Positions 1 to 34,646 of a stretch of 53,652 bases of DNA are shown here, in pieces. This stretch comes from Gammaproteobacteria bacterium. Lineage in GTDB: Bacteria > Pseudomonadota > Gammaproteobacteria > Eutrophobiales > Eutrophobiaceae. The stretch is from contig QNEM01000002.1 in the NCBI GenBank assembly GCA_003645215.1, forward strand, positions 1-53,652, written 5' to 3'. The translations under genes and the position numbers were made by a program. Numbering within the stretch: the first letter of the stretch is position 1; every line of letters starts with the position of its first letter. The notes beneath the pieces were generated by a model, which ran no database searches, was not told where the DNA came from, and was given only the letters and a program-made list of their open reading frames with translations.

Positions 1-1
1 G

Positions 2-646
2 GCATTTACCGGTCAGGCATTTATCACCACGGATCTGGATGATAATCAGATCACCGCTTTTCATCCGGGAGCCATGGATTATGCCCATGAGAACACGGTA
101 TTTGATGCAGAGGGGATAAGTATTGGCATAATTTCACCGGATGGGCGCGATGGCATGATTCAACATGCCAGTCAATTTGTAGAAGCAGATATTCCTTTTG
201 TGTTTGATCCCGGACAAGGTTTGCCTATGTTTACGGCAGAGGATCTTAAAAACTTTTTTAAACAGGCGACATGGATCACCGTGAATGATTATGAATGGCA
301 GATGATGCAGGAAAAGACTGATATGACTCCTCACGATGTTGCAGAGCTGGTAGATGCATTAATCGTGACCAAAGGTGGTGAAGGATCATTAATTTATACA
401 ACTGAAAAACGTTATGAAATACCCAGCGCCACACCATCAATACTTGAAGACCCTACAGGTTGTGGTGATGCCTATCGCGCAGGCCTGTTATATGGCCTGA
501 TGAATGATATGGACTGGGAAACCACAGGACGAATTGCCTCACTCATGGGCGCTATAAAAATTGAATGCCATGGCACGCAGAACCATTCGTTTACCATGGA
601 TGAATTCAAAGCTCGATTCAAAGAAGCCTTTGAACGGACTATGTGA
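2..646 (+). CDS. PfkB-family carbohydrate/nucleoside (adenosine-type) kinase, 5' end cut by window edge
   Basis: The frame of ORF 74..646 stays open back to nt 2 (AFTGQAFITTDLDDNQITAFHPGAMD...). C-terminal PfkB signature DPTGCGDAYRAGLLYG. TGA stop at 644-646. Confidence 0.85.
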   Translation, partial: AFTGQAFITTDLDDNQITAFHPGAMDYAHENTVFDAEGISIGIISPDGRDGMIQHASQFVEADIPFVFDPGQGLPMFTAEDLKNFFKQATWITVNDYEWQMMQEKTDMTPHDVAELVDALIVTKGGEGSLIYTTEKRYEIPSATPSILEDPTGCGDAYRAGLLYGLMNDMDWETTGRIASLMGAIKIECHGTQNHSFTMDEFKARFKEAFERTM

Positions 647-712
647 AGCGTTAAAAGTGAAGAGTGAAACGCAATCTTAATACTTTTCACGTTTAACACT
701 TAACGTTTCACC
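643..712. repeat. Heptamer-word inverted-repeat element, copy A (GTGAAG/GTGAAA left arm, TTTCAC right arm)
   Basis: Left arm is atGTGAAGcgttaaaaGTGAAGaGTGAAAcg and right arm is aCTTTTCACgtttaacacttaacgTTTCACc. It shares the core ACTTTTCAC(G/A)(T/C)TT with the copies at 20945 and 38118. The first GTGAAG word contains the pfkB-family stop codon. Confidence 0.7.
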
Positions 713-760
713 TTATGGTTTTCTGCTCCCGTCCGCGCTTATAGTGCACGAAGTCGATAC
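708..760 (-). pseudogene. Relic of a malate synthase G 3' end (last ~15 codons plus stop)
   Basis: nt 721-755 match nt 12972-13006 (the real glcB 3' end) at 31/35 positions in the same orientation. The minus-strand translation DFVHYKRGREQKTIR* compares with glcB EFVLYKRRREQKNI*. Similarity fades further upstream. Confidence 0.6.
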
Positions 761-929
761 ATACTGTGCATTCACCTATATCTCGATCAACATCGGCTTA
801 GTTGATCTAAATCAATTCATTTTTGTGTGACTCTACTAGTCTCGTATGTATGTGCCTCCAGTTTATATAGCTGGGAAGGGCGGGTGTGATGGATGTTCTG
901 TCTTTATTAATAATAGGAGATCATTGATT

Positions 930-1271
930 ATGACAGTACCAGTTATTGAGATAAGTGGAATAGGACCAAAAGCAGCGGAATATCTAAGAAATAACGGGAT
1001 TTTTACTGCTGAGGACTTGCTCAAAGATGGCATTAACTGTCTACAGCAGGTACCGGGGTTTGGTAAAAACAGGGCAGAACAAATACTGGAAGTAATTACT
1101 GTCACGCTCGGTCTTGGCGGTAAAAAATCCAGCGCAAAGCCTGACAAGAAAAAGAAGAAAAAAAGCAAAGATAAAAATAAGAAAAAGTCCGGCAAGAGAA
1201 AGTCTGGCAAGGATAAGAAAAAAAGAGATAAGAAAGGTAAGAAGAAGGATAAGAAAAAAAAGAAAAAGTAA
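930..1271 (+). CDS. Helix-hairpin-helix (2x HhH) protein with a poly-lysine C-terminal tail (histone H1-like)
   Basis: ATG at 930 lies 9 nt after AGGAGA (915-920) and is preferred over the listed 846 start. HhH motifs are ISGIGPKAAEYL and VPGFGKNRAEQIL. By my count the last 49 residues hold 31 K and 2 R. Confidence 0.7.
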   Translation: MTVPVIEISGIGPKAAEYLRNNGIFTAEDLLKDGINCLQQVPGFGKNRAEQILEVITVTLGLGGKKSSAKPDKKKKKKSKDKNKKKSGKRKSGKDKKKRDKKGKKKDKKKKKK

Positions 1272-1337
1272 AGTAAGGTAGAAATTCTAAAAGTCATAGC
1301 TAACACATTAATAAACAGAGATCCTGGGAGATTGAAC

Positions 1338-2222
1338 ATGCCAAAAAATAAAGGCAATAATGCTGAGGCAAACATGAAGGATAAAGTGGACGAAGGGATC
1401 ATGACAGATGGTGAAGTTGATCCAAAACTGCTTGCAAGGAAAAAGAAAAAGCTACCGACGGAATTCTACGAAAAGGAATTGTTCAGGCTTCAGGTAGAAA
1501 TGGTAAAACTTCAGGAATGGATCAAGGAGAAAGACCTGAAGGTTGTGGTTATATTTGAAGGACGTGATGCAGCAGGAAAGGGTGGTGTCATAAAGCGCAT
1601 CACAGAGCATCTGAACCCTCGCGTCTGTCGTATAGCAGCATTACCTGCCCCATCGGAACGGGAAAAAACCCAATGGTACTTCGAGCGATACACTAATTAT
1701 TTGCCATCTGCAGGCGAGATGGTTTTGTTTGACCGTAGCTGGTACAACCGGGCAGGGGTAGAGGTAGTGATGGGATTTTGTACCGATGATGAACACCAGG
1801 AATTTCTGCGTTCCTGCCCGGAATTTGAGCGCATGCTGGTTCGATCCGGGATTATCCTGATTAAGTACTGGTTCTCTGTCAGTCATGGGGAACAGGAAAA
1901 ACGTTTTCAGGGCCGTAGAAAGCAACGGCACAAGTATTGGAAACTAAGTCCCATGGATATGGAATCCAGGGCACGCTGGAAAGAATATTCCAAGGCCAAG
2001 GATGAGATGTTTGCCCATACTGATATCAAGCAGGCACCCTGGTACGTTGTACCGTCGGACGACAAGAAGCGTGCACGACTCAACTGCATGGCACATCTGT
2101 TAAGTATGATCCCGTATGAGGATCTGGTGCCGGAAATTCCGAAACTACCGGCCCTGGGTGATATAGGTGGATATGTTCGCTCGCCTATGCACGATCAGAC
2201 GTTTGTCCCGGAGCTATACTAG
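1338..2222 (+). CDS. ppk2: Polyphosphate kinase 2 (PPK2 family)
   Basis: P-loop FEGRDAAGKGG, FDRSWYNRAG and WKLSPMD motifs typical of PPK2. ATG 1338 lies 7 nt after GGGAG; the listed ORF starts at TTG 1332. Confidence 0.9.
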   Translation: MPKNKGNNAEANMKDKVDEGIMTDGEVDPKLLARKKKKLPTEFYEKELFRLQVEMVKLQEWIKEKDLKVVVIFEGRDAAGKGGVIKRITEHLNPRVCRIAALPAPSEREKTQWYFERYTNYLPSAGEMVLFDRSWYNRAGVEVVMGFCTDDEHQEFLRSCPEFERMLVRSGIILIKYWFSVSHGEQEKRFQGRRKQRHKYWKLSPMDMESRARWKEYSKAKDEMFAHTDIKQAPWYVVPSDDKKRARLNCMAHLLSMIPYEDLVPEIPKLPALGDIGGYVRSPMHDQTFVPELY

Positions 2223-2248
2223 GGAACCGTAAAGAAAACCGGCATATC

Positions 2249-3691
2249 TCACATAAAGAATAGCCGGAGGCCATAAAAGAACGCAATAGCAAGCGCAGCA
2301 CCGGCCGGTATCGTAATCACCCATGAGATAATAATCTCCCGGACGATGCTGAAATTAACAGCGCCAATACCACGGGCGAGACCAACACCGAGAACAGCTC
2401 CAACGAGGGTGTGGGTCGTCGAGATCGGCAGGCCAAGCTTGGTCGCTATAACAATAGTCGTGGCAGCACCGAACTCTGCGCAGAATCCCCTGGTAGGGGT
2501 AAGTTGGGTGATCTTATGACCAATTGTTTCCATTACCCTCCAGCCCCAGGTCGCGAGTCCGATAACAATACCGATACCTCCAAGACCGAGCACCCACAGG
2601 GGAACTGGTGATTCTGCAGCGATACTGGCCCCTCCCGCCATGGCAACGGATATAACCGCCGACATGGGTCCGATTGCATTAGCAACGTCATTTGCCCCAT
2701 GGGCAAAAGCAACTAATGAGGCACTCAGGATCTGAAGATAGACAAAAAGTTTTTCTACCCTTTGATACTCTACGGTATTGGTATGGAATTCATATTTTCG
2801 TTGAGACTCGAAGCGAAGCCGTTTGACTTCGTCTAAGGTATCAGAGAGTTCTCTTTTCATACGTTTTGGTGCAGTAGAATGTACTCGCTCGAGATGTTTA
2901 ATCGCTTTTTCAAGCGCCTTTACGACGCTGGGGTCAGTTACAGCCTCTTGATCATCTTGTTTATCTTCCCCTTCCTGATCTGGCATTAGCGATACCAGCC
3001 ATAGACTAATCAGTGATGCAAGCAGACCTACACCCATGGCAACAACAAGGGCTTCTGGCAGATTTAGATCTAGATTCAGGTTCTTCAGGCCTTTAAAGAC
3101 CAGTGCCAGTGACAATATCGCGAAAACAGTAAAAACAATATAGGGCGCTAACTTTTTTGCAGCTCGAAGTGGATGGTGTTTAAAAAAGATGTGGCGTAAC
3201 AAGAGACGAAAGATGAGGTAGGAAATGATACCACTGAGTAGTGGTGAGACGATCCAGCTCAGGGCTATTTGTCCAACCATGTCCCAATGGACGGCAGAAA
3301 TTCCACCGTAAGCAACACCAAAACCGATCACAGCACCAACAATAGAGTGAGTTGTCGATACCGGCCATCCTTTCAGTGATGCAAATTGTAGCCAAACACC
3401 GGCAGCCAGGAGGGCAGCAAGCATACCGAGCATGAACGACAGGCCGTCACCGGCAAAGAGTGCAGGATCCACGATCCCCTTACGTACCGTCTCAGAGACA
3501 TGCGAGCCGGCCAGGAACGCCCCGCTGAATTCCAGGATTGCGGCTAAAATAACCGCACGGCGTATGGTCAGTGCACCGGAACCGACCGAGGTACCCATGG
3601 CATTGGCGACATCATTGGCACCAATGCCCCAGGCCATATAAAGCCCGAAAATAATTGCCAGGACAAGGATAATGAGAAACTGCGTTTCCAT
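2249..3691 (-). CDS. pit: Inorganic phosphate transporter, PiT family
   Basis: Two PHO4 repeats, each with the GANDVAN signature (GIGANDVANAMGTSVG, HGANDVANAIGP). Polytopic, with a charged central loop. Confidence 0.92.
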   Translation of the reverse strand: METQFLIILVLAIIFGLYMAWGIGANDVANAMGTSVGSGALTIRRAVILAAILEFSGAFLAGSHVSETVRKGIVDPALFAGDGLSFMLGMLAALLAAGVWLQFASLKGWPVSTTHSIVGAVIGFGVAYGGISAVHWDMVGQIALSWIVSPLLSGIISYLIFRLLLRHIFFKHHPLRAAKKLAPYIVFTVFAILSLALVFKGLKNLNLDLNLPEALVVAMGVGLLASLISLWLVSLMPDQEGEDKQDDQEAVTDPSVVKALEKAIKHLERVHSTAPKRMKRELSDTLDEVKRLRFESQRKYEFHTNTVEYQRVEKLFVYLQILSASLVAFAHGANDVANAIGPMSAVISVAMAGGASIAAESPVPLWVLGLGGIGIVIGLATWGWRVMETIGHKITQLTPTRGFCAEFGAATTIVIATKLGLPISTTHTLVGAVLGVGLARGIGAVNFSIVREIIISWVITIPAGAALAIAFFYGLRLFFM

Positions 3692-3738
3692 TGCTTAATC
3701 GTTATGTCTGATTGTGTTGATTATTTACTGGATGTAAT

Positions 3739-4413
3739 TTAATGGGATTCAAGTGTCATGCGAACCGAAGATGTAAGTTCCTCACATCGATCCGCGAGAC
3801 GTGCAACTTGCCTGATAATGCTGGTCCACAGGAAAAAATCACCGTGTGATATATCATCCTCGTGTGCCAGCATACTGCGTAACAATTCTCTCTGGATGAC
3901 ATCTGTTTCGTACTCTTTGTGTGCGACCTTGTCGACGAGTTCCTGGACGGTCTGTGCCTGAATACCACCAAAACCTGTTTCCAGAAGTTCGTCCAACTGG
4001 GCAATGACGCTGTGTGTCAATGTAAATGCTTCAAGGCTTTTGCTTACCAGGTCATTGAAGCCTGTTTCAAATCCTTCAAAGGTGTTGGCCTGCTTGAAGG
4101 TGAGTAACACAGCGAGATTCTCGGCACGGTTCGCTATGCTGTCCTGAACCTTGAGTATACGCAGGAGGTTCGCACGATCGACAGGCATAAATATGCCTCG
4201 CGGTAGATTGTTACGTATATCGTGTTTAATAAGATCTGCGGCGTGCTCCAGACGCGAGATTTTTTTTGCGAGAGATTTGACTTCAGACTTATCCTGACGA
4301 TGGTAGGCATCTATTATCTCCGGAATTTTAGCCACACATTCAGCCACTTTTTCCATATGCATTTGTAATGGAACAAAGGGAGATCGGCCAAAAACTTTTG
4401 CTATGCTACGCAT
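3739..4413 (-). CDS. DUF47/TIGR00153 PhoU-like phosphate transport regulator (PiT partner)
   Basis: 224-aa helical protein directly upstream of pit in the same operon. This is the classic ykaA-pit type pairing, and the sequence looks like the PhoU-like DUF47 family. Confidence 0.85.
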   Translation of the reverse strand: MRSIAKVFGRSPFVPLQMHMEKVAECVAKIPEIIDAYHRQDKSEVKSLAKKISRLEHAADLIKHDIRNNLPRGIFMPVDRANLLRILKVQDSIANRAENLAVLLTFKQANTFEGFETGFNDLVSKSLEAFTLTHSVIAQLDELLETGFGGIQAQTVQELVDKVAHKEYETDVIQRELLRSMLAHEDDISHGDFFLWTSIIRQVARLADRCEELTSSVRMTLESH

Positions 4414-4466
4414 GGTAGTGCTCCTCTATACAGGGATGAACGACATACAAGATTACAAGTATGGTA

Positions 4467-6005
4467 CTATTTTTCAAATTGGTCACTAGAAACATTATTA
4501 CTGGACTCTTCATTAATTTTCAGCTTGTAAGCTGTTGCAGAGACATAAGCAGCTTCTGTTTCAATATCTATCTCTGTTAATGGATGGTCATCAAGCCAGT
4601 TTTCAGGAAAAATAATCTTTAAATAATTATTCCCTGCTTTAAGTTTAAATTCTGGCAGTGCATCGGAAGATCTGCTGCGATGCAGGAGGATTGAAAACCT
4701 GACAATGATACACAAGCGCAGTATTCGATCGATATTATTTTCCGACATAGATTGAATTTCTTCTAATGGAAATTTGCGCCGATGGCTACGTACCAAAATG
4801 GCAAGTTCTGCCTGTGTCTGCCTTGAAAAGCCAGGCATATCAGAATGGTTTATCAGATATGCTCCATGCCTGTGATACTGGCTGTGAGCAACTGCAATTC
4901 CTATTTGATGTAATCTGATTGCCCATTTGATTAATTTCAGATCCTGCTTCTTGTCAAGTTGCCAATCAGCTTGTACTTGATCAAAACAATTCCTGGCAGT
5001 TATTTCTATTAATTTTACATGGTCTATATCTACAGAATAGCGGGCCATAAAATTATTAACTGTTGCGACCCGAACATCCTTGTTTTGAACCCTGCCTATC
5101 AAATCATGCAGTAAGCCCTCTCGTAGTGCCCCATCAGAAATAGATATTGATTCCAGATCGAGTGCCTCAAACACAGCAGATAATACCGCAACACCTCCAG
5201 GCAATATGGACTTCTGATTATTTGGAATAGATTCAAATCTGAGTTTCTTGATATGGCCTGCATTTATCATAACATCTGTTAATTTATCCAGAGATTCCCT
5301 GGTAATGCCAACATCACACCAGGATTTTTCCATGGCTATCTCATTTATTCTCAGGACTGCACCTGATGCTCCAAGCGCAACTTCCCATCCCATATTTTTA
5401 TATATTGTTCCTATTGTCTCCAGCTCCTGTCGACAGTGTAAAATAGCCTTGCACATTTTCTTTGCCGTGATTTCCCCATCATTGAAATAACGTTTGCTGA
5501 CACTGACAGAGCCCATATAAAGGCTTTCAGACAATATTGGCTCATAGCCCTGGCCAATAATGATTTCTGTACTACCACCGCCGATGTCAACAACAAGACA
5601 CTTTTTATTGTCCTGGAAAGCAGAATGAGCCACTCCCAGAAAAATTAACCGGGCTTCCTCAATACCTGAAATGATTTCTATCGGATGATCCAGTGCCAGT
5701 CTGGCTTTGTTTAAAAAAATATTACTATTGATTGCCAGTCGTAGGGCATTGGTTCCGACAGCATGTACATTCTCGTGAGGAATCTCATTTATCCTTTGAC
5801 CAAACCTCTCTAAAGCCTTCAGGGCATCTTCCATGGTTTCATCGCTAAGCATATTATGCTTATCAAGGCCACCAGCAAGTCTGACCGTGTCTTTAATGCG
5901 ATCAATTACCTGAATTTGATTATTATCGTTCTTGGCAACGATCATATGAAAGCTGTTTGAGCCTAAGTCGATAGCAGCATATATGTTGGGTTCAGATAGT
6001 GACAT
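4467..6005 (-). CDS. ppx: Exopolyphosphatase (Ppx/GppA family)
   Basis: ASKHA-fold motifs AIDLGSNSFHM and VVDIGGGSTE. 512 aa with a C-terminal HD-like helical domain. Confidence 0.92.
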   Translation of the reverse strand: MSLSEPNIYAAIDLGSNSFHMIVAKNDNNQIQVIDRIKDTVRLAGGLDKHNMLSDETMEDALKALERFGQRINEIPHENVHAVGTNALRLAINSNIFLNKARLALDHPIEIISGIEEARLIFLGVAHSAFQDNKKCLVVDIGGGSTEIIIGQGYEPILSESLYMGSVSVSKRYFNDGEITAKKMCKAILHCRQELETIGTIYKNMGWEVALGASGAVLRINEIAMEKSWCDVGITRESLDKLTDVMINAGHIKKLRFESIPNNQKSILPGGVAVLSAVFEALDLESISISDGALREGLLHDLIGRVQNKDVRVATVNNFMARYSVDIDHVKLIEITARNCFDQVQADWQLDKKQDLKLIKWAIRLHQIGIAVAHSQYHRHGAYLINHSDMPGFSRQTQAELAILVRSHRRKFPLEEIQSMSENNIDRILRLCIIVRFSILLHRSRSSDALPEFKLKAGNNYLKIIFPENWLDDHPLTEIDIETEAAYVSATAYKLKINEESSNNVSSDQFEK

Positions 6006-6025
6006 TTATATAAATAGCAGGAGGT

Positions 6026-7651
6026 TTAATGTTTAACCAGGCTGGCCTTTGTTTTAGATACTTGTCCGATAGTACTATGTAATTTCCGCTGAGATGCAAT
6101 AATATTTTTGTATAGTACAGAATTTGATGGTGACGAAAATTTCCTGAATTTTACATCAAATGCTGATCTTACCTTTTTATTACGTATTGCGAGTCTTGTC
6201 ACCAGCATCTCTATTGCCTTTCTGGTCTCCAGGTCTATTCCAGTTTCATTTTCCATGTCTGATATAAAATGCTGTAATGAATCCTGCTGCACCTGTAAAT
6301 CCTGAAACTCCCCCAGATTGTCCTGCAGATCTTTCAGGTTTCCTATTAATTTTCGCATTTTGTTTTCAGGATAAAGGTTCTGAAAAAATTCATTCAGATA
6401 ACGTAGTTTTTTACATGTCTTACGCAATTCATGAAGTAAGGTAGCAGGAGAATCAGCAACGATGATATTGCCCTCTTTGTATGCCTTGCGGTAGGCACGC
6501 CAGACATGTTCACTGGCAACATTAACAATAGGCAGGTTTGCATTCTTTAGCATTGAATGCTTCGGAGCAGGGGTCTTGAGAAATTTTTCCCAGTCCTGTT
6601 TGAGTTTACGATAACGTACACTGTTCAGGACCTTTACAAGCTGATCATGCTCTTTATGCCTGTGCCGTTGCAGGAACTCGTATAAGGGGGTAATGTCTTC
6701 ACGTACATCTGCCGGTAATTTCTTTTTATATTCATTAAATGACAACAGATAAACATCCATATCACGAGCGGGTCCGCTTACTTCACCAAGCCAGGCAAAA
6801 TCCCTTTTGAACCTTGTTATCCGACGTTTGGGTAATACATTTCTGATTTGACTCAACAAAGAACGGGTGCGACGAACCGCAACGCGGAAATCATGCAGAA
6901 ATTCTGAATCAATGTCTTCTATGATCCCGTTTTCGTTATCTTTCATGGTTTCCAGTAATTGGTAGAAAATATTTTTAACTGCTGTATCTGCACGCTGATC
7001 AGGATCGCTTACTGTTATTATTTGAAGTTTTCTTCCCGGTTCCTTTGCATAATGTTTCAAGGTGGTGATAAGCGGGTCATCAGACAATGGGACAAGATGG
7101 CACTCTTTCTGTAATAAGCGACATGCTTTTTTTATTACCCCTTTATTACCCTTGATTGGGTATAAATGAACGCGCTTGCCAATATTTATATTGCTTTGAT
7201 TATTTTTTACGCAATCATCTTTAGATGGGCAATCACGCTGAAATTCTATACGTAATATGATCTTTCCCTGATCATCATGGACATACGCAATGTGAATACG
7301 CGTAGCAACAGTAGCAACCGGTAACAGGGCACGAAACTCCAATATTTTCTCAAGCTTTGTCTTGATGTCCGATTCTCCCAGATCCCAGACAAATCCTGGA
7401 ATTTGGTCAATTGGGCACCTGCCGTACACTTGTTCTGCTCCCAGTGGACGCCAGGTGAGCCAATTTCCTATCTCATCCATAGCTGATTCCAATACACTAC
7501 CTGCACTGAATATTCGCCAGTCGAATGTATCCAGATAGGTACGGGTAATTACATTAGGCTCCTGAAATTGCAGATTGAGATTTTGCTTCAAAAAAGCCTC
7601 CACCTGCCTGATGGAACCATTCCTGGGTATCTTGAAGATAGTTGTTTTCAC
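6026..7651 (-). CDS. CHAD domain protein with an N-terminal CYTH-like domain (no obvious ExExK motif)
   Basis: CHAD-type basic helices (HDFRVAVRRTRSLL, LHELRKTCKKLRYL). The N-terminal ~200 aa resembles CYTH-CHAD proteins (TYLDTFDWRI) but lacks an N-terminal ExExK. Confidence 0.82.
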   Translation of the reverse strand: MKTTIFKIPRNGSIRQVEAFLKQNLNLQFQEPNVITRTYLDTFDWRIFSAGSVLESAMDEIGNWLTWRPLGAEQVYGRCPIDQIPGFVWDLGESDIKTKLEKILEFRALLPVATVATRIHIAYVHDDQGKIILRIEFQRDCPSKDDCVKNNQSNINIGKRVHLYPIKGNKGVIKKACRLLQKECHLVPLSDDPLITTLKHYAKEPGRKLQIITVSDPDQRADTAVKNIFYQLLETMKDNENGIIEDIDSEFLHDFRVAVRRTRSLLSQIRNVLPKRRITRFKRDFAWLGEVSGPARDMDVYLLSFNEYKKKLPADVREDITPLYEFLQRHRHKEHDQLVKVLNSVRYRKLKQDWEKFLKTPAPKHSMLKNANLPIVNVASEHVWRAYRKAYKEGNIIVADSPATLLHELRKTCKKLRYLNEFFQNLYPENKMRKLIGNLKDLQDNLGEFQDLQVQQDSLQHFISDMENETGIDLETRKAIEMLVTRLAIRNKKVRSAFDVKFRKFSSPSNSVLYKNIIASQRKLHSTIGQVSKTKASLVKH

Positions 7652-7888
7652 AGCTTATTCTTTATATGAAAATTGGCAATCCACACAAAACTCCTTAACT
7701 GGATATATAGCTGGAAGATTAAGTAATTTCTGTTGTTTTTTCATTGACCTGAATCAACATCATGCCAAACACTACCGAAAAGTGCCTTGTTAAGCCCCTC
7801 TACGTGTGTTTCCTCACGTTCAGGCAAAAGTTGGAAAGTGTAGAATATCAGGTAATATTGACCTGTTTAAAATTGCAATAGGCAAACA

Positions 7889-8407
7889 ATGAAACGCAGC
7901 CTACTTATCATGCGTCATGGGAAATCTGACTGGAATACCGACAGTCACTCAGACTTCGAACGCCCACTTGCTAAACGTGGCCAGAAAGCAGTGAAGCGTA
8001 TTGGCCAATGGCTAATACAGCAGAAATTGACCCCCGACCACATCATCAGTTCTCCAGCCAATCGCGCACAACAAACAGCAATCGGAATATGCCGGAAACT
8101 AAAGCTTGCCGAATCAAGCATTACCTGGGAGTCGAGGATTTATGGAGCAGAAATGCAAACACTACTCGATGTGCTGGCTGCATGCCCAGCAGAGAAACAG
8201 AGGGTCATGTTAATCGGTCATAATCCTGGTCTTGAGATGTTGCTTCGCTATCTTGCAGTTGACACATTTGAAACCTCTCATGGTCACAATCCCATGCCCA
8301 CTGCAGCACTGGCTTCCCTGGATATGCCGGATAACTGGGAGGATTTAGATGCGGGTGCCGGGGAACTGATTTCTATTATCTACCCCCGTGAACTTGCAGA
8401 TATCTAA
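7889..8407 (+). CDS. sixA: SixA-type phosphohistidine phosphatase (histidine phosphatase superfamily)
   Basis: LIMRHGKS catalytic motif, SPANRAQQT and LIGHNPG motifs; 172 aa. Confidence 0.85.
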   Translation: MKRSLLIMRHGKSDWNTDSHSDFERPLAKRGQKAVKRIGQWLIQQKLTPDHIISSPANRAQQTAIGICRKLKLAESSITWESRIYGAEMQTLLDVLAACPAEKQRVMLIGHNPGLEMLLRYLAVDTFETSHGHNPMPTAALASLDMPDNWEDLDAGAGELISIIYPRELADI

Positions 8408-8450
8408 TATTCCCTTTAACTAAAATATAATAGAAATCTCTGTTTAATAT

Positions 8451-10712
8451 CTATAATGCATCCTGCCTGACGTTTCTGTGGCTGATTACCCTGGTTTTCC
8501 GTTTCTTTAGGCGCAGCGCTTCCTTCTGTCTTTCTTCTGCCTCCTGTATCAGTTTTTCCTGACTACCCAAAGCTGTTTCATCAGTTGGTATACGCTTGAT
8601 GTAGCTTCCATCCGATTGCATATCCCAGGCATTACGTTGATCCGCGAGGTGGATATCTAATATGGTGCGTAGTTTTTCCTGTAGTGCCGGGGTATCCACT
8701 ATCACAGCTACTTCAACCCGGTGTTCCAGATTACGTTTCATTAAATCTGCTGAGCCTATGTAATACTCTTCATCACCACCATTGTGGAAATAACAGATAC
8801 GGCTATGTTCAAGGAACCTGCCAACGATACCCATAACACGTATGTTTTCCGAGATGCCCTGTATGCCGGGACGCAGTCGGCAAGTATCACGAATTATGAG
8901 GTCGATATGTACACCAGCCTGTGATGCTTCATATAGCCCACGAATTATATCGGCGTCTTCCAGTGCATTCATTTTAAACTGGATCAGACCATTCTTATTT
9001 TCCGAATGTTGTTCTATTTCTCGCTTGATCTTGCTGAGCAGGGCACGTTTCAGCATCTTGGGTGACGGAATAATCTTTCGATAATTACGTTTTGGCGTGT
9101 AGCCTGTAGTAAGGTAATTGAACAATTCAGTAAGATCCTGACCAATGATCCGATCATCGGTCAACAAACCGATGTCAGTGTACAGTCTCGCAGTACCAGC
9201 GTGATAGTTACCGGTTCCGATGTGCGCATACCGGCGCAGTCCATCATAATCATTGCGTACTACCAGTATTACCTTACTGTGAGTCTTGAGACCCAGCACG
9301 CCATAAGTCACATGAATACCAGCTTCTTCCATTCTGTTTGCCCAACGTATATTGGCCGCCTCATCAAATTTGGCTTTTAATTCAACTACAACTGCCACCT
9401 GTTTGCCGTTACGCGCGGCACTAATAAGATACTCAATGACTTTGGTATCACTGGAAGTACGATAAAGCGTCATTTTAATGGCAAGCACCTTGGGATCACG
9501 GCTCGCTTCTTTCAGAAACCGCTCTACAGAAGTAGAAAATGATTCGTATGGATGCTGGAGTAAAATCGATCCCGAATCACGGATAGTATAAAAAATACTT
9601 GGAGAACCCTTTAACTTGGGATGATCGACTGGATGATGTGGTACGTAGTGAAGCTCTGGATTCTCCAGCGATGCCAATTGAAATAAATCGGCCATTGCTA
9701 TCATGCTACCTGTTTCAAATACATCAGTAGATTCATCCAGGCCCAATTCTGCGGCGAGCATCCCTCGGCGTTCAGGATTCATATCTTTTTCGGTTACAAC
9801 ACGTACGATGCGTGAGAATTTACGGTCTCGTAATTCGGATTCGATCAATTCCAGAAGGTCATCAGCCTGATCTTCATCTTTCTCCGTATTGGCATTGCGA
9901 ATCACATTGAATAATTCACATGCCTGAATTTCCATTTTTGGGAAGAGCAGGTCAAGATTATTGGAAATAACATCTTCCAGAAGAACAAATTTTGTGGAAT
10001 CGTCTATTTTGAGAAATCGGGGGATGCCGCTACCTATCGGCACCTTTACCCGCGCAAGTAATGATTCGTCGTCATCAGGATAGTTGAGCGTAACCAGCAG
10101 GTTTAAGGATCGATTGGAGATAAAAGGAAAAGGATGTGCAGGGTCCATGGCCTGTGGTGTAACCAGCGGAAAAATATTCTCCATGAAAAAATCACGCACT
10201 ATCTTTTTATTATCTTCATCAAGCGTGTCATATGAGAGTACACGAATGTCGTGCTCCTCAAGTTCTTTCAATAATTGTGGTAGTAGCAGATCTGTCTCAG
10301 CTTCAATGTTACGAACAACATCGTAGCATTCATTGATCTGTTCCTGGGGCGTGCGCCCGTCATCAGTTAAATCATGTACTCCTGCACCTACCTGCAATTT
10401 CAGTCCACCAATACGCTTCATGAAAAATTCGTCCAGATTGGATCCGATAATTGCCAGGAATTTTATTCGCTCCAGAAGTGGAGTATTCGGGTCTTGAGCC
10501 TCATGCAAGATGCGCCAGATAAATTCGAGCCAGGTTAATTCACGATTTAGATAATACTCGGTAGATGTCGGGTCATAATCGACTGCCTGCTCGATATCCT
10601 GAGTCTCGCTGGTAAGCGTAGACGAATCGGGGCTTTCATCTGAACTTTCCAATAGATGAAGTGATTCTACATTCTGATTTTGTGACTTCTGTCGCATGTC
10701 TGCCATTATCAA
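8451..10712 (-). CDS. ppk1: Polyphosphate kinase 1, with a ~45-aa acidic Ser/Thr-rich N-terminal extension
   Basis: 753 aa. YYLNRELTWLEFIWRILHEA aligns with the E. coli PPK N-terminus. PLD-like C-terminal domains are present (GLKTHSKVILVV, RFLEHSRI). Confidence 0.95.
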   Translation of the reverse strand: MIMADMRQKSQNQNVESLHLLESSDESPDSSTLTSETQDIEQAVDYDPTSTEYYLNRELTWLEFIWRILHEAQDPNTPLLERIKFLAIIGSNLDEFFMKRIGGLKLQVGAGVHDLTDDGRTPQEQINECYDVVRNIEAETDLLLPQLLKELEEHDIRVLSYDTLDEDNKKIVRDFFMENIFPLVTPQAMDPAHPFPFISNRSLNLLVTLNYPDDDESLLARVKVPIGSGIPRFLKIDDSTKFVLLEDVISNNLDLLFPKMEIQACELFNVIRNANTEKDEDQADDLLELIESELRDRKFSRIVRVVTEKDMNPERRGMLAAELGLDESTDVFETGSMIAMADLFQLASLENPELHYVPHHPVDHPKLKGSPSIFYTIRDSGSILLQHPYESFSTSVERFLKEASRDPKVLAIKMTLYRTSSDTKVIEYLISAARNGKQVAVVVELKAKFDEAANIRWANRMEEAGIHVTYGVLGLKTHSKVILVVRNDYDGLRRYAHIGTGNYHAGTARLYTDIGLLTDDRIIGQDLTELFNYLTTGYTPKRNYRKIIPSPKMLKRALLSKIKREIEQHSENKNGLIQFKMNALEDADIIRGLYEASQAGVHIDLIIRDTCRLRPGIQGISENIRVMGIVGRFLEHSRICYFHNGGDEEYYIGSADLMKRNLEHRVEVAVIVDTPALQEKLRTILDIHLADQRNAWDMQSDGSYIKRIPTDETALGSQEKLIQEAEERQKEALRLKKRKTRVISHRNVRQDAL

Positions 10713-10991
10713 ACTTTCTCTCTATATATATCATTGACTTAGATCAATAATTTTTTGAAATAGCACCAAAAAGGTGGATCCTGTATTTACTAGCAAAAAA
10801 ACAGAAATATCATTCGGCTGGAATGGTGCTACACAAAAACTTTACCGTTTATATATCGCTAGTATAGGGGGTTCCCCCGATAATTTCCTTATTCTACAGC
10901 AGATTAAGTCATTTATCGGTGAAATTTCATCATGTTCTATAATATTTCGATACTCAAACCTGACGTAAGAACATAAATTGAAGATCAAAAA

Positions 10992-12779
10992 TCAGGCAGC
11001 TTCTTTAATTTGAATGTTGATGTCTTCTTCCTCTTTGAAGAAGACTTCTTCAAGTTGTCTATATTCAGAACCAATGATTACAAGATATTTGGCTGCCTTG
11101 AGCAGCAAGCGGTAGATTTCCAGAACCGAGGAACTGCAGGTAATCAGGGATACACCTTGTTCAGGTGTTATTTTCTTTTCCCTGATCAAGCGGTCAATAT
11201 CCAGCAGCAGGGTATTATCGTCGGATTCTGCCGAGCTCTTGATTCCACCCAGAAGGGTATCGCATTCATGGAAAAATATTTCCTCATCATCCTTCAGGAA
11301 TGTTCTGAGTAATCTGATCACCGCACATTTTAATTTCAAATATTCATTATTAAGAACGGTATTCTTGTCACTCTTGTGCCTGGCGATCTCTGATGTCAGT
11401 GTCTTGACATGAAGTAGTATTTCCATTGCATCGCGATGAATCTTCTTTAGCCGGGTTACGCGTTCATTGTCTTCACGTGCAAGCTGGAACTTTTCCTGAA
11501 TTGAAGAAGCAAAATTCAAGACCTCGCTGTAGATTGGTTGAATACGCATTTTAATAAACTCCTCCTGTTTAATGCCTGGATGCGCCTTCGCCTTTACAAT
11601 CTCTTCAATAGGTTTGTCTGATTTAATATCCTTACGATGAACACCAAGACTATGTGCAATTGCTTCAATGATAGCCTCCTGGTAAAGACGGCGGGTTTCT
11701 TCCAGCAGGGCCTTAATTGCAGTTTCCGGATATTTCAGGGCCTGTTTATTCAGGTATTTTGGTTTTGAAAACACGGGCTCCGGCTTAACTTTCTCGGGGA
11801 GAATAAAGATAACCAGATTTGCTATGATCGTGACGCACCAGATCAGAAGCAGGGTATTCAGCACGTTAAAGGTACTGTGAAACAGTGCCAGACCAATGGG
11901 AATATCCGTAGCAACAACAAGAGGGTTCGCACCCATTAATTCAAAAGCCAGTTTGTCTATTATGGCCAGATACGGGACAAACAATATCAATATCCAGGTC
12001 ACACCAATCACATTAAATATAAGGTGAGCGAGGGCGGCACGTCTTGCCTCGGTGCTGGAGATCGCCGCCGCCAGGTTTGCGGTAATGGTTGTACCGATAT
12101 TTTCACCAAGGACAATGGCCGCTGCTGCTTCAAAGGTGAGAACACCCTGGCTCGCTGCAACCAGCGTAATCGCCATGGTGGCACTGGAAGATTGCAAGAT
12201 TAGCGTCAATATGGTGCCTATGAGCACAAACAACATAATACCAAGAGCACCCCGTTCAGTGTTGCGTTGGAAGAACTCAAACAATTCAGGATTGTTGTCC
12301 AGACCCGTTATGGCATCCTTCATGAATTCGAGGCCAATAAACAGCAGGGCAAAACCGATAATGAAATTACCGAGGGCATTCAATTGACGATCTTTTTTCA
12401 GGTAAAAGATCAAGCCGACGATGATCATGGGGACGACTATGGAACTCATCTTTACCTTGAAACCGAGAACCGCAATCAGCCAGGCAGTAAAGGTGGTGCC
12501 GATATTAGCGCCCATAATCACGCTGATTGCTTCGGTCAGGCTTAACAACTGGGCGTTTACAAAGCTGACCACCATAAGTGTGGTCGCGGAGGAGGATTGA
12601 ATCAGGCCGGTAACAAATAAACCCGTGAGTACGCCTTTGAACCGATTCGATGTTAACTGAATCATGACTTTGCGCATCTTATCCCCGGCCAAATCCATCA
12701 GCGCGTCACTCATGACCTTCATGCCATAAAGAAACAGCGCCAGGGAACCAAGTAAATTAAGAAACTCAAAAAATCCCAT
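10992..12779 (-). CDS. Na+/phosphate cotransporter family protein (NptA/YjbB-like) with a C-terminal PhoU-like domain
   Basis: Duplicated Na_Pi_cotrans repeats carry QSSSAT signatures (LIQSSSATTL, ILQSSSATMA), followed by a ~230-aa soluble helical tail. Confidence 0.9.
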   Translation of the reverse strand: MGFFEFLNLLGSLALFLYGMKVMSDALMDLAGDKMRKVMIQLTSNRFKGVLTGLFVTGLIQSSSATTLMVVSFVNAQLLSLTEAISVIMGANIGTTFTAWLIAVLGFKVKMSSIVVPMIIVGLIFYLKKDRQLNALGNFIIGFALLFIGLEFMKDAITGLDNNPELFEFFQRNTERGALGIMLFVLIGTILTLILQSSSATMAITLVAASQGVLTFEAAAAIVLGENIGTTITANLAAAISSTEARRAALAHLIFNVIGVTWILILFVPYLAIIDKLAFELMGANPLVVATDIPIGLALFHSTFNVLNTLLLIWCVTIIANLVIFILPEKVKPEPVFSKPKYLNKQALKYPETAIKALLEETRRLYQEAIIEAIAHSLGVHRKDIKSDKPIEEIVKAKAHPGIKQEEFIKMRIQPIYSEVLNFASSIQEKFQLAREDNERVTRLKKIHRDAMEILLHVKTLTSEIARHKSDKNTVLNNEYLKLKCAVIRLLRTFLKDDEEIFFHECDTLLGGIKSSAESDDNTLLLDIDRLIREKKITPEQGVSLITCSSSVLEIYRLLLKAAKYLVIIGSEYRQLEEVFFKEEEDINIQIKEAA

Positions 12780-12904
12780 AGACGATTAACCCCTACTTGT
12801 ATGTAAAGGTATAACTCAGATCGCTAAAATAATTATTGATTCAGATCAAATCATTCGGTTTCAGTGGGGAAATTGATTCGATGATCCGTCGGCACAGCTC
12901 GATA

Positions 12905-12953
12905 GTAGTTAGTAGGTGGTAGGTAGGTTTTCCCTACATGCCACCTACTACCT
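12905..12953. repeat. Heptamer-word hairpin (TAGTAGG/GTAGGTR words) immediately downstream of glcB
   Basis: TAGTAGGTGG (12910-12919) pairs perfectly with CCACCTACTA (12941-12950). An inner GTAGG/CCTAC pair is also present. The left arm reads as tandem heptamers tagtagt-tagtagg-tggtagg-tagg. Confidence 0.65.
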
Positions 12954-12961
12954 GCAACATA

Positions 12962-15142
12962 CTAAATATTCTTCTGTTCCCGTCTGCGCTTATAGAGCAC
13001 GAACTCCGTATAACCATTGGCTTGCTCAAGTCCTTCAAAGACCAGGTCCAGGGCAGCTTGAAACGGGATACTGTTTTCGAAATCTACTGACATCTGTTTG
13101 TATTCTTTGTCGTCTCTGTTCTGTCGATCAACAATGACGGCCATACGTTCCATTGCTGAACGCACATCCTCTCTTGTGACGATTTTATGGTGAAGCCAGT
13201 TAGCAATATGCTGGCTGGAAATACGTAAGGTCGCGCAATCTTCCATCAAGGCAACGTCATTGATATCGGGCACCTTGGAACAGCCTACACCTTGACCAAC
13301 CCAACGCGATACATAGCCCAGAATTCCCTGTGCATTATTTTCCAGTTCGTGTCGAATCTCTATTGCCGTTAATTGCCTATCCTTGTTCATCACCGGGATA
13401 TCGAGGATTTCATCAACAGGAACCTGTTTGGCTTTCATTAAGGCATGTTGACGGCTATGTACATTTAACTTGTGATAATGAATAGCGTGTAGTGTTGCCG
13501 CAACAGGAGACGGAACCCACGATGTATTGGCACCCGCCTTCAGGTGTTGGATCTTGGTTCTCATCATATTGCCCATTTCTTCTGGCATGGCCCACATACC
13601 TTTGCCAATCTGGGCTTTGCCTTCAAGTCCGCAGCTTAATCCTACCTGGACATTGGATTCCTCATAGGCCGTTAGCCATTTGGCCTGTTTTATTTCTGCC
13701 TTGGGGATTATTGGCCCTGCTTCCATATTGGTGTGGATGTCATCGCCGGTACGATCCAGAAAACCTGTATTAATGAAAACAAGCCGATCTTTGGCAGCAT
13801 TGATGCAGGCTTTCAAATTCACCGACGTACGTCGTTCTTCATCCATGATGCCTAGCTTCAAGCTGTTTCGTTCAAAACCCAGGGCGTCTTCAACGCGTTC
13901 AAATAAGTCATTGGCCAGTGCAACTTCCTCCGGGCCGTGCATCTTGGGCTTAACGATATAAACGGATCCCGTTCTGCTGTTACGTAATTTCGAGTTACCC
14001 AACAAATCATGTTTTGCAGATAAAGCCGTGACCATGGCATCGAGCATAGTTTCCGGAATCTCTTCTCCCTTATAAAGCACTGCATCTGTATTCAGATGCA
14101 TACCAACATTACGTACCAATGCCAGACTTCTTCCATGTAAGGTGACTTCCTTGCCATCAGTGCCGATATATTTTCTATCCGGTTCCATAGTACGTTCAAT
14201 GGTTTCATCATCTTTAACAATGGTGCGTACCAGTGTGCCTTTCATCAAACCCAGCCAGTTTTTGTAGACCTGAACTTTATCTTCGGTATCGACAGAGGCC
14301 ACCGAATCTTCGCAGTCCATGATTGTAGTAACAGCCGATTCCAGAGAAATATCATAAATTTTAGCGTGATCACGGCGGCCGATAAAATAGCCATCACCAA
14401 ATTTAATTTCTAAATGCAAATTGTGGTGGCACAGTAAAACTGCATCAGGATTATCCGGTTCTCCGGTGTAACCAATAAATTGTTGCGGTTTAAGTAATGT
14501 TGTTTCACTACCATCACCAAATTTCACGGTGAGTTGATTGTTATTGATAAAATATTTCGTCACATGTTTGTGCGTATCTCTTTCCAGGGCAAAGTGTCTG
14601 TCTAAAAGATGCCGCGCACGTACGATGACTCGTTCACCACGAATCGGATTATATTTATTAATATTTCTACAGCCGTTTGCTTCTGAAATAGTATCTGTTG
14701 AGTAGAAAGCATCATAGATACTACCCCAACGTGCATTAACGGCATTTAGTACATAGCGTGCATTATCGAGTGGGACAACCAGTTGTGGACCTGCAACTTT
14801 TGCAATTTCCAGATCAACATTGCTGGTACTAATACTGAAACTTTCACCTTCCGGGACAAGATAGCCAATTTCCTGTAAGAACTTTTTATAGGCTTCCGGA
14901 TCATGTTTTTCATTCCGATTGGTTATATGCCATTCATCGATTTGTTTCTGTAGTTGATCGCGTTTGGCTAATAGTTCGGTGTTTCTTGGCTGCAGTTCGC
15001 TAACGATTTTTTCAAGCGAAGACCAGAAGTCATTAACTTCGACACCGGTTTCAGGAATAACTTCAGTTGCTATTAAATTGTACAGGTCTTCAGCGATATC
15101 AAGATCGCCTGCTTTCTTATAATTCATATCTCTACTCTTCAT
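12962..15142 (-). CDS. glcB: Malate synthase G
   Basis: 726 aa with MDCEDSVASVD, GIMDEERRTSVNL and NTGFLDRTGDDIHT motifs characteristic of the G isoform. Confidence 0.95.
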   Translation of the reverse strand: MKSRDMNYKKAGDLDIAEDLYNLIATEVIPETGVEVNDFWSSLEKIVSELQPRNTELLAKRDQLQKQIDEWHITNRNEKHDPEAYKKFLQEIGYLVPEGESFSISTSNVDLEIAKVAGPQLVVPLDNARYVLNAVNARWGSIYDAFYSTDTISEANGCRNINKYNPIRGERVIVRARHLLDRHFALERDTHKHVTKYFINNNQLTVKFGDGSETTLLKPQQFIGYTGEPDNPDAVLLCHHNLHLEIKFGDGYFIGRRDHAKIYDISLESAVTTIMDCEDSVASVDTEDKVQVYKNWLGLMKGTLVRTIVKDDETIERTMEPDRKYIGTDGKEVTLHGRSLALVRNVGMHLNTDAVLYKGEEIPETMLDAMVTALSAKHDLLGNSKLRNSRTGSVYIVKPKMHGPEEVALANDLFERVEDALGFERNSLKLGIMDEERRTSVNLKACINAAKDRLVFINTGFLDRTGDDIHTNMEAGPIIPKAEIKQAKWLTAYEESNVQVGLSCGLEGKAQIGKGMWAMPEEMGNMMRTKIQHLKAGANTSWVPSPVAATLHAIHYHKLNVHSRQHALMKAKQVPVDEILDIPVMNKDRQLTAIEIRHELENNAQGILGYVSRWVGQGVGCSKVPDINDVALMEDCATLRISSQHIANWLHHKIVTREDVRSAMERMAVIVDRQNRDDKEYKQMSVDFENSIPFQAALDLVFEGLEQANGYTEFVLYKRRREQKNI

Positions 15143-32391: not shown

Positions 32392-32733
<342 letters not shown>

Positions 32734-32754
32734 CAGCCTGGGAGAAACTTAATA

Positions 32755-34098: not shown

Positions 34099-34124
34099 TC
34101 TTTCATCACACTCAGTATCAGGAA

Positions 34125-34148
34125 AGGGCGCTTCGGCGCCCTTTTTTT
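34125..34148 (+). terminator. Rho-independent terminator after amtB copy 1
   Basis: AGGGCGC-ttcg-GCGCCCT followed by T7. Confidence 0.85.
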
Positions 34149-34210
34149 GTGCCCCAATCTGGTTCAGGGCAATCTCATGATGCACCGATATGAAATTATG
34201 TTAGTCTTCC

Positions 34211-34227
34211 TGCACACTATCTGTGCA
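34211..34227. promoter_or_regulatory. NtrC-like 17-bp dyad TGCACACTATCTGTGCA upstream of glnK copy 2
   Basis: Matches TGCACC-N5-GGTGCA at 10/12 positions. A TGCACC half-site sits 30 bp upstream (34181-86). No GG-N10-GC element lies between it and ATG 34281. Confidence 0.45.
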
Positions 34228-34280
34228 ATATATTTCAGGCATATGAGTCGTCGAAATTAAATCCCGGGAGAATTATCTAA

Positions 34281-34619
<339 letters not shown>

Positions 34620-34646
34620 AGAATGAAACGGGGAGAGGGGTAAGGT

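Follow-up and report, generated by a model that had tools for sequence, protein, structure and literature searches.

An 11.9-kb polyphosphate and phosphate gene neighbourhood with FNR-type boxes in an uncultured gammaproteobacterial lineage

The first 53,652 nucleotides of contig QNEM01000002.1 (Gammaproteobacteria bacterium, family Eutrophobiaceae; assembly GCA_003645215.1), hereafter termed the window, carry nine consecutive phosphate-related genes at positions 930-12779 (11.9 kb). They encode a small helix-hairpin-helix protein with a lysine-rich tail (HhH-K or HhH-polyK), the polyphosphate (polyP) kinases PPK1 and PPK2, a PiT-type phosphate carrier with its DUF47 accessory protein, a Ppx/GppA-family protein (PPX), a TTM-like-CHAD protein, a SixA-like phosphatase and a Na/Pi cotransporter-like protein (NaPi). 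The presence, coordinates and spacing of these genes, first described in an initial annotation, were all borne out by the open reading frame (ORF) list combined with Pfam and NCBIfam scans. We propose, with a probability of roughly 0.58, that the block is a vertically inherited chromosomal neighbourhood in which one uncultured lineage would hold nearly its whole polyP and inorganic phosphate (Pi) toolkit, with an operator of the FNR/Anr/FixK type in each promoter region; everything beyond gene identity is our reading of sequence. The initial annotation had seen a self-contained polyP-organelle cassette. Its view of a coherent, co-conserved block has held up, whereas the block appears to be neither mobile, nor a single operon, nor complete.

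The case for common control comes from the DNA between the genes. Each of the four promoter-bearing intergenic gaps of the cluster contains one TTGAT-N4-ATCAA palindrome (Table 1), the textbook consensus of the FNR/Anr/FixK group within the Crp/Fnr family. The window holds nine matches to this consensus at no more than one mismatch, against 4.96 expected, and five of them lie in coding sequence. The four cluster boxes are the sole intergenic matches of the 53.6-kb window, and the sole two perfect ones stand at the cluster ends. In composition-preserving shuffles, a site arose with a frequency of 0.012-0.034 per region (product 1.7e-7); sites in at least three regions at once were never seen in 20,000 shuffles. 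Hexamers resembling a -10 element follow the boxes by 22-25 nt, a spacing that fits class II activation, the promoter geometry known for E. coli FNR. In the literature searched, we found no report of FNR-type boxes before every polyP transcription unit.

For comparison with relatives, we used the CHAD gene as anchor and sampled 80 GTDB species-representative loci, whose CHAD proteins are 34-41% identical to that of the window, together with eight metagenomic or metagenome-assembled contigs at 54-93%; because the metagenomic contigs are short, neighbourhood counts are biased low. All four boxes are kept in the closest relative (L083, 93% CHAD identity). Boxes occur at ppk1, at napi and between the divergent chad and sixA genes in L174 (84%), where the napi box stays with its gene despite an inversion of napi, and in L175 (77%) the chad-sixA box differs in the N4 spacer only. 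Further away, boxes lie upstream of ppk1 and of napi in L084 (62%; the napi one perfect), upstream of ppk1 and between the divergent ppk2 and chad in L171 (59%), upstream of the chad-parA-duf47-pit operon in L173 (54%) and upstream of duf47-pit in L086.

Several observations weigh against reading these boxes as a common switch. In the closest relatives, overall intergenic identity is as high as 70-90%, so that only L084, L171, L173 and L086 provide real footprint evidence. The motif was first noticed by eye, which makes the P-values post hoc, although the consensus itself is a textbook one. The ppk1 box lies only 28-43 nt from the start codon and would therefore imply a near-leaderless mRNA or repression rather than activation. 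A generic promoter and terminator scan gave fewer sigma-70-like sites than shuffled sequence, the sole exception being the -35/-10 pair that abuts the ppk1 box, and no Crp/Fnr-family regulator gene is present in the 53.6-kb window. Nor does box density upstream of CHAD exceed background in the 80 distant GTDB loci (0.08 against 0.09 per kb); we accordingly dropped FNR control as a family-wide trait and regard control by the boxes as lineage-specific. The sites in the window are nevertheless enriched over chance and conserved, as would be expected of operators of an FNR/Crp-family regulon. One candidate for the regulator, encoded at 36207-37250, was rejected: it has two stretches matching cyclic-nucleotide-binding domains and a rhodanese domain, with no DNA-binding domain detected by Pfam.

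A different signal might underlie the same arrangement. In a phosphate-starvation (PhoB/PhoR) neighbourhood, the palindromes would be bound by another Crp-family or unrelated regulator, or would have no regulatory role, and oxygen would play no part. Consistent with this, the CHAD family stands beside pstSCAB-phoU (PstS in 30 of 83 loci) and SixA in more distant relatives, a setting typical of Pho control; several model bacteria place polyP genes under Pho regulation, and Crp/Fnr members of TTGAT-N4-ATCAA specificity answer signals besides O2. However, the cluster intergenic DNA contains no E. coli-type Pho box (CTGTCAT-N4-CTGTCAT): the best match there has 4 of the 14 specified positions wrong, and the matches with three mismatches lie within coding sequence. 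There are no pst, phoU or phoBR genes in the window either, and the palindromes match the FNR consensus exactly (two) or with one mismatch (two) and recur in relatives. On balance, we consider the Pho explanation unlikely and favour an FNR-type operator.

Around the ppk1 promoter, the choice of start codon matters. Possible starts are TTG 10712, ATG 10706 and ATG 10697; the calls in relatives (748 aa; L001, L083) use ATG 10697, which is probably the true start (748 aa). Together with the -10-like GATAAT at 10711-10706, this start would yield a nearly leaderless mRNA. Upstream of the box, a block of about 190 nt (10760-10950) that contains the palindrome GGGGGTTCCCCC is highly conserved in L083 and L174, and it stays with ppk1 where napi is inverted in L174. 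Rfam gave no match to this block, whose folding z-scores are modest (-1.9, -2.3); it could be an extra regulatory region, a small RNA or a small ORF.

The nine genes form a functionally coherent block rather than an accident of gene order. Within it, gaps on the minus strand amount to 20 nt between chad and ppx, 53 nt between ppx and duf47 and 47 nt between duf47 and pit, and ppk2 starts 60 nt 3' of the HhH-K gene (hhk) on the same strand. Three strand changes (2222/2249, 7651/7889 and 8407/8451) and a 279-nt gap between napi and ppk1 rule out a single operon; the block instead comprises at least four and probably five transcription units, namely hhk-ppk2, chad-ppx-duf47-pit, the sixA-like gene, ppk1 and napi. 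According to the ORF list of the window, no further credible ORF interrupts it. A 179-aa frame rich in F, L and S on the minus strand (863-1402) has no Pfam match and was dismissed as an antisense artefact of AAG/AAA-rich lysine codons. The description of the block as a self-contained, complete cassette does not fit this layout of at least four units on both strands, nor the lack of the ParA-like ATPase gene that stands directly after chad in 61 of 83 loci.

Table 1. Genes of the polyP/Pi block and FNR-type boxes, in window coordinates
Feature	Position	Strand	Evidence and context
HhH-K (HhH_5 + poly-K)	930..1271	+	Pfam HHH_5 at 1.8e-12
PPK2, one-domain class I	1332..2222	+	PF03976 at 1.8e-104; TIGR03707 372 bits
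PiT/PHO4-family phosphate carrier, last gene of the chad-ppx-duf47-pit unit	2249..3691	-	PF01384 at 1.2e-125
DUF47/PhoU_div (PitR-type) accessory protein of PiT	3739..4413	-	PF01865 at 9.2e-51; TIGR00153 above cutoff
Ppx/GppA-family exopolyphosphatase	4467..6005	-	PF02541 + PF21447
TTM-like-CHAD protein, 541 aa	6026..7651	-	PF05235 at 7.8e-60
SixA-like His_Phos_1 protein	7889..8407	+	PF00300; TIGR00249 72.2 bits
PPK1	8451..10712	-	four PPK1 Pfam domains; TIGR03705 782 bits
Na_Pi_cotrans (NptA/YjbB-like) protein, 595 aa	10992..12779	-	PF02690 at 3.3e-61; TIGR00704 251 bits
FNR-type box TTGATCTAAATCAA, perfect	802..815		121 nt upstream of the HhH-K start; -10-like TAGTCT starts 22 nt after
FNR-type box TTGACCTGAATCAA, 1 mismatch	7744..7757		divergent chad-sixA region; -10-like TAATCT starts 23 nt after, toward chad
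FNR-type box TTGACTTAGATCAA, 1 mismatch	10734..10747		just upstream of ppk1; abuts a -35/-10-like pair (GATAAT)
FNR-type box TTGATTCAGATCAA, perfect	12836..12849		63 nt upstream of the NaPi start; -10-like TACCTT

According to the initial annotation, a flanking direct repeat suggested that the block had moved as one piece. A cassette bounded by direct repeats, acquired or moving as a unit, would account for the contiguity of the nine genes, for the order shared with L083 and L174 and for the short similar sequences at both ends (802-815 and 12836-12849). These end sequences, however, are 14-bp palindromes with two further occurrences inside the block, each before a gene, and the presumed repeat is probably just two of the four FNR-type boxes. 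No direct repeat of at least 16 nt flanks the block (seed 11, minimum 16 nt; chance-level pairs only), the window contains no tRNA, and its ORFs scanned by Pfam (ORF 52426-53628 was not scanned) include no integrase, transposase or recombinase. Composition shows no anomaly: the cluster has a GC content of 0.435, against 0.433 elsewhere in the window, the tetranucleotide correlation to the window (0.96-0.975) equals that of other 12-kb chunks, and GC3 is mildly raised only in ppk2 and napi (z about 2.2-2.3). Neither flank is related to polyP: a PfkB kinase gene borders one end, genes for malate synthase G, HU and GTP-PEPCK lie beyond the opposite end, and the remaining window is core chromosome (lgt, thyA, folA, apaH/apaG, ksgA, pdxA, surA, lptD). 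Moreover, L083 shares the PfkB flank, and both the subsets present in other lineages and their gene orders vary, as if the genes had accreted piecemeal. The block does not qualify as a mobile cassette or genomic island, transfer is not supported, and we regard movement in one piece as highly improbable compared with vertical inheritance of a chromosomal neighbourhood.

Gene order in relatives illustrates how the neighbourhood may have been assembled. L083 keeps all nine families in the same order, and L174 keeps seven families up to the contig end. L084 carries acylphosphatase, ppk1, sixA, chad, parA-like, ppx, duf47 and pit genes, with napi a few kb on and no hhk-ppk2, and was counted as retaining eight families; L171 has ppk1, a two-domain ppk2, chad and parA, L173 has chad-parA-duf47-pit, and L172 (58%) has napi-chad only. 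Over 83 CHAD loci, we counted ParA-like ATPases in 61, SixA-like proteins in 30, PstS in 30, PstC/A in 27, PhoU in 22 and HhH-K in 15, followed by PPK1 (11), PPX (10), PPK2 (8), PiT (4), DUF47 (3) and NaPi (3); in loci of 15 kb or more, the median is four families. From these counts, the consolidation of nine families, found together only in the lineage of the window, would be specific to that lineage and built from modules that are separate elsewhere, where other lineages shuffle them. The expectation of conserved linkage among relatives has thus proved correct at the level of sub-modules, which recur in many lineages, and for the whole set in L083 and, up to the contig end, in L174.

Three further features of these relatives were recorded. 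In L174 (627-5152, compared with 8451-12779 of the window), napi and ppk1 are divergent instead of tandem; their linkage is kept, and each gene has its own box. In L171 (4660-6914), a frameshift or an assembly error has divided ppk1 between two overlapping ORFs (514 and 240 aa). Finally, across L004-L068 (e.g., L032:2352-9051 and L005:13042-18643), which come from Methylococcales and other Gammaproteobacteria, a divergent sixA and chad-parA arrangement stands beside a complete pstSCAB-phoU set, and a CNNM/CorC-type gene recurs in 15 loci.

The first gene of the block appears to represent an undescribed protein family that recurs beside polyP genes. HhH-K combines a small (HhH)2 DNA-binding domain with a 55-aa lysine-rich tail (31 K, 2 R, 5 D), giving the whole protein a net charge of +26 and a pI of 10.3 as calculated from composition. 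A longer ORF from 846 exists; we took ATG 930 as the start because AGGAG stands 11 nt before it and because all homologues begin with MTVPVIE. All 120 homologues share the same architecture of 100-150 aa with a (HhH)2 domain and a tail of 40-80 residues, 40-65% of them Lys/Arg. An exhaustive HMMER search recovered 280 representative clusters among 1.84 billion (E<=1e-3), mostly of 100-150 aa and aligned end to end. In the 15 CHAD loci that contain it, hhk either follows chad-parA at a distance of 0.2-1 kb or immediately precedes chad. As a first alignment (A2) was too diverse for a metagenome scan, a single-clade alignment (A3) was used instead; 61 of the 80 loci returned were not classified as HhH-K, nearly all with a different HhH protein, and served as negative control. 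Thirteen of 22 independent HhH-K loci adjoin chad-parA, napi-ppk2, ppk1-sixA or duf47-pit in several gene orders, and such recurring linkage in differing orders is a signature of functional coupling. In the control set, the figure is 1 of 61 (L119, probably a truncated HhH-K). The literature searched yielded no report of this family as a polyP-gene neighbour.

The SixA-like protein presents a similar picture. It scores 72.2 bits with TIGR00249, below the cutoff of 74.5, and retains the RHG (residues 9-11) and GHNP motifs. Its gene is mostly divergent from and immediately upstream of chad, predominantly in Methylococcales, or stands next to ppk1. A SixA-like gene has already been listed, with no known function, among typical PPK neighbours (PMC12995831, PMC10734472), and clustering of CHAD and SixA with ppk and ppx is likewise in the literature (PMC6537752, PMC12995831, PMC10892726). 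The two extras singled out by the initial annotation, HhH-K and SixA-like, are thus indeed co-conserved with polyP genes, in 15 and 30 of the 83 CHAD loci, respectively, and on the HhH-K side also in 13 of 22.

Their adjacency could still be largely historical, with HhH-K a general histone-H1-like nucleoid protein and the SixA-like phosphatase serving an unrelated phosphorelay or PTS-Ntr. The HhH domain is indeed similar to the modules by which PolX, RuvA and the RNAP alpha-CTD bind DNA non-specifically, a zetaproteobacterial member (L087/L088) has no phosphate neighbours, and E. coli SixA has the non-polyP targets NPr and Ndk (PMC7948535, PMC12934123). Against this stand the enrichment of polyP/Pi neighbours at HhH-K loci over the control, the fact that most of the eight HhH-K loci from the metagenome scan without such neighbours lie on short or truncated contigs, and the position of SixA-like genes opposite chad or beside ppk1 in about 30 loci, together with their standing as typical PPK neighbours (PMC12995831). 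We therefore consider mere historical adjacency improbable, and a functional neighbourhood the better account of both genes.

The CHAD protein consists of an N-terminal domain of TTM/CYTH fold (about residues 1-205) followed by a CHAD domain (about 220-520). The latter belongs to the CHAD family by its Pfam match and its helical-bundle fold, with profile matches to PDB 3e0s and 6qv7 at about 1e-80 and a Foldseek match to 6qv7 at TMt 0.90; polyP binding is putative for this protein, as CHAD domains bind polyP and polyP granules (PMC6537752). Over the first 220 residues, neither Pfam nor NCBIfam gives a match, even at E<=10. In an AlphaFold2 (AF2) model built on 26 homologues (pLDDT 89, pTM 0.83), the N-terminal half matches the ThTPase 3bhd, the Sulfolobus protein SaTTM (7ns8) and full-length YgiF (5a60) at TMt 0.55-0.69 by Foldseek. 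The ExExK motif is absent from this domain, in which strand 1 reads TIFKIP, and FxIP-type strand-1 sequences without the acidic pair are shared by the 13 family members inspected out of 26. As modelled, the domain is TTM-like in fold and is not to be classed as an active TTM enzyme; having lost the metal-binding ExExK motif, it probably binds phosphate chains as a non-catalytic module and does not cleave them. The earlier label "CYTH-like" is hence apt for the tunnel fold of the model, and is backed neither by a Pfam CYTH match nor by ExExK.

In most relatives, the TTM-CHAD gene has a partner that the window lacks. A ParA/Soj-like deviant-Walker-A ATPase (KGGVGKT) is encoded directly 3' of it in the 61 loci counted above (L003-L085, L171 and L173, e.g., L084:11530-12270 and L085:11587-12336), often with an HhH-polyK gene next, and the two reading frames overlap by 4 nt at 28 of 69 junctions. 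No ParA-like ORF occurs anywhere in the window, where ppx takes this position, and L172 also has no such ATPase after chad. We suggest that the CHAD-ParA pair of relatives is a candidate ATP-driven module for positioning polyP granules. In the literature searched, no report reads this near-universal and often translationally coupled pair as a granule-positioning system; the linkage of ppk, parA and CHAD has been drawn for Acidithiobacillus without interpretation (PMC10892726). According to a 2025 review, granule-positioning proteins are unidentified in most bacteria, and whether positioning uses ATP is not known (PMC13052382).

The polyP enzymes are clearly recognizable, with a caveat on class for one of them. 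PPK1 matches all four domain models (N, head, C1 and C2: PF13089, PF02503, PF17941 and PF13090) and scores 782 bits with TIGR03705 against a cutoff of 465.85, which establishes its membership. PPK2 exceeds the TIGR03707 cutoff of 301.8 and belongs to the one-domain class I. The product of 4467-6005 scores below cutoff with both the GppA model (447.7 bits, cutoff 624) and the PPX model (438.5 bits, cutoff 864), and only its membership in the Ppx/GppA family is certain from sequence. An Rfam scan of 1-13200 returned a single result, a sub-threshold manA match antisense inside ppk1 (9032-9244, plus strand; 22 bits against a gathering threshold of 55, E 0.034), which we read as chance.

Two phosphate carriers complete the set. 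A PF01384 carrier 47 nt from a PF01865/TIGR00153 protein forms a PitA-PitR (DUF47) pair. The co-orientation and tight spacing of ppx with duf47-pit suggest that polyP hydrolysis is coupled to Pi flux, and this coupling matches the efflux model for polyphosphate-accumulating organisms. The carriers had been called importers, a label that we do not keep: sequence does not give transport direction, and the position of ppx fits Pi efflux equally. YjbB-type NaPi proteins have been reported not to be sufficient for import in E. coli, and PitR, like the NptA PhoU domain, has been described as an accessory regulator (PMC12439885). The membrane domain of NaPi is of the Na_Pi_cotrans type (TIGR00704 above cutoff). 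Its C-terminal tail (residues 326-595, 270 aa) is all-helical in an AF2 model (pLDDT 78) based on a shallow alignment, since a word-index homology search found six matches only. No Pfam family, PhoU included, matches the tail, and the top seven Foldseek matches in the PDB are PhoU chains at weak scores (E 0.045-0.2, TMt about 0.5-0.6). A comparison with PhoU and DUF47 alignments from the loci by hhalign had no power, as its PhoU-versus-DUF47 positive control failed too. The "PhoU-like tail" of the initial annotation is therefore plausible by fold and not established.

Taken together, these features suggest how the neighbourhood might work. An FNR-like regulator would switch the whole set together on an oxygen or redox signal. 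PPK1, itself autophosphorylated on histidine, would build polyP; the TTM-like-CHAD protein would bind the granule surface, its tunnel domain probably binding rather than cleaving; and HhH-K might bridge polyP, through its polycationic tail, and the nucleoid, through its (HhH)2 domain, by analogy with AlgP and PhaH. PPK2 would regenerate nucleoside triphosphates from polyP. Hydrolysis by PPX would be transcriptionally coupled to PiT and its PitR-type protein, and the released Pi exported or re-imported, with the NaPi/PhoU-like protein as a second carrier or a sensor. E. coli SixA removes the phosphohistidine intermediate of Ndk (PMC12934123), and the SixA-like phosphatase may likewise tune or reset a phosphohistidine enzyme, for which PPK1 is the obvious candidate. 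As a more tentative extension, TTM-like-CHAD and HhH-polyK could form a granule-to-nucleoid tether that ParA joins in most relatives, as the first ATP-driven system for positioning polyP granules, and that works without ParA in the lineage of the window, with the whole granule programme under one FNR-type oxygen switch; we regard this as possible rather than probable.

Granules of polyP are widespread in nature, and how oxygen shifts trigger the build-up and release of polyP is an unsettled question on which this locus touches. The locus offers a compact candidate set of granule proteins, namely TTM-like-CHAD and the previously unremarked HhH-polyK family, and the ParA-like partner occurs in relatives, some of them methanotrophs that are in culture and amenable to genetics, for example Methylotuvimicrobium buryatense 5G (L034). 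A simple cis-element would link all polyP genes to a putative FNR-type regulator and, if this link is true, would explain at the level of transcription how redox changes drive phosphate cycling in sediments. Should the tether and the FNR switch both prove true, they would give a genetic basis for the oxic storage and anoxic release of polyP in sediment sulfur bacteria and polyphosphate-accumulating organisms. Elsewhere in the window, at 32395-35936 on the plus strand, we noted two tandem pairs of glnK (P-II) and amtB ammonium-transporter genes in a region of strong GC skew (about 0.2).

Among known systems, the CHAD polyP clusters are close counterparts (Lorenzo-Orts et al. 2019, PMC6537752; Iyer & Aravind 2002, as cited there; the Sulfolobus sixA-ppx-ppk3-CHAD "conserved polyP operon", PMC12995831). 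As in the window, CHAD, PPX, PPK and SixA-type genes are direct neighbours, and CHAD serves as a granule protein that binds polyP, the role proposed for the CHAD protein here. The window adds PPK1, PPK2, two Pi carriers with PhoU-type accessory modules and HhH-polyK, and it differs in its at least four units on both strands and in the ExExK-less TTM domain of its CHAD protein. The folD-ppk-parA-CHAD group of Acidithiobacillus likewise links a CYTH+CHAD protein to ppk1 and shows the same CHAD-ParA pairing as most loci here, whereas the lineage of the window has no ParA at that place; its ParA was not interpreted in terms of granules (PMC10892726). The flexible islands of HIMB59 (pst-phoU, phoBR, ppk, sixA, ppx) also unite phosphate and polyP genes, including SixA, in one locus, but they are variable replacement islands centred on pst, while the block described here has no pst, phoBR or island signatures (PMC10734472).

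The carriers have equally clear precedents in PitA-PitR, where a PiT protein has an adjacent DUF47 protein, and in NptA-PhoU-domain carriers and E. coli YjbB, where a NaPi-family carrier has a C-terminal helical domain (PMC12439885). In contrast to these, the pit pair of the window lies 53 nt from ppx in the same orientation, an arrangement that would allow co-transcription, and the NaPi tail of the window, compared with the NptA-PhoU type, has diverged beyond Pfam detection and is weakly PhoU-like by fold. HhH-K recalls AlgP of Pseudomonas aeruginosa, a granule-nucleoid tether with a lysine-rich tail that affects polyP granule spacing (PMC9239181), and the polyhydroxybutyrate granule-nucleoid tethers PhaH, PhaF and PhaM, of which PhaH uses an HhH domain (PMC13052382). 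AlgP and PhaH are, like HhH-K, small proteins with a non-specific DNA-binding element and a granule-binding element, the latter being putative for HhH-K. The lysine-rich AlgP tail is histone-H1-like, and HhH-K has no sequence relationship to AlgP, PhaH, PhaF or PhaM; its tail is rich in K, D, S and G with KKKDKK-type runs, in contrast to KPAA repeats. In excerpts of the Accumulibacter FNR regulon study (PMC6446978), polyP genes are not named as FNR targets. Known FNR regulons centre on respiration, unlike the polyP genes of the window, with which FNR/Anr/FixK regulons nevertheless share the same 14-bp palindrome and a spacing to the -10-like element that resembles class II promoters.

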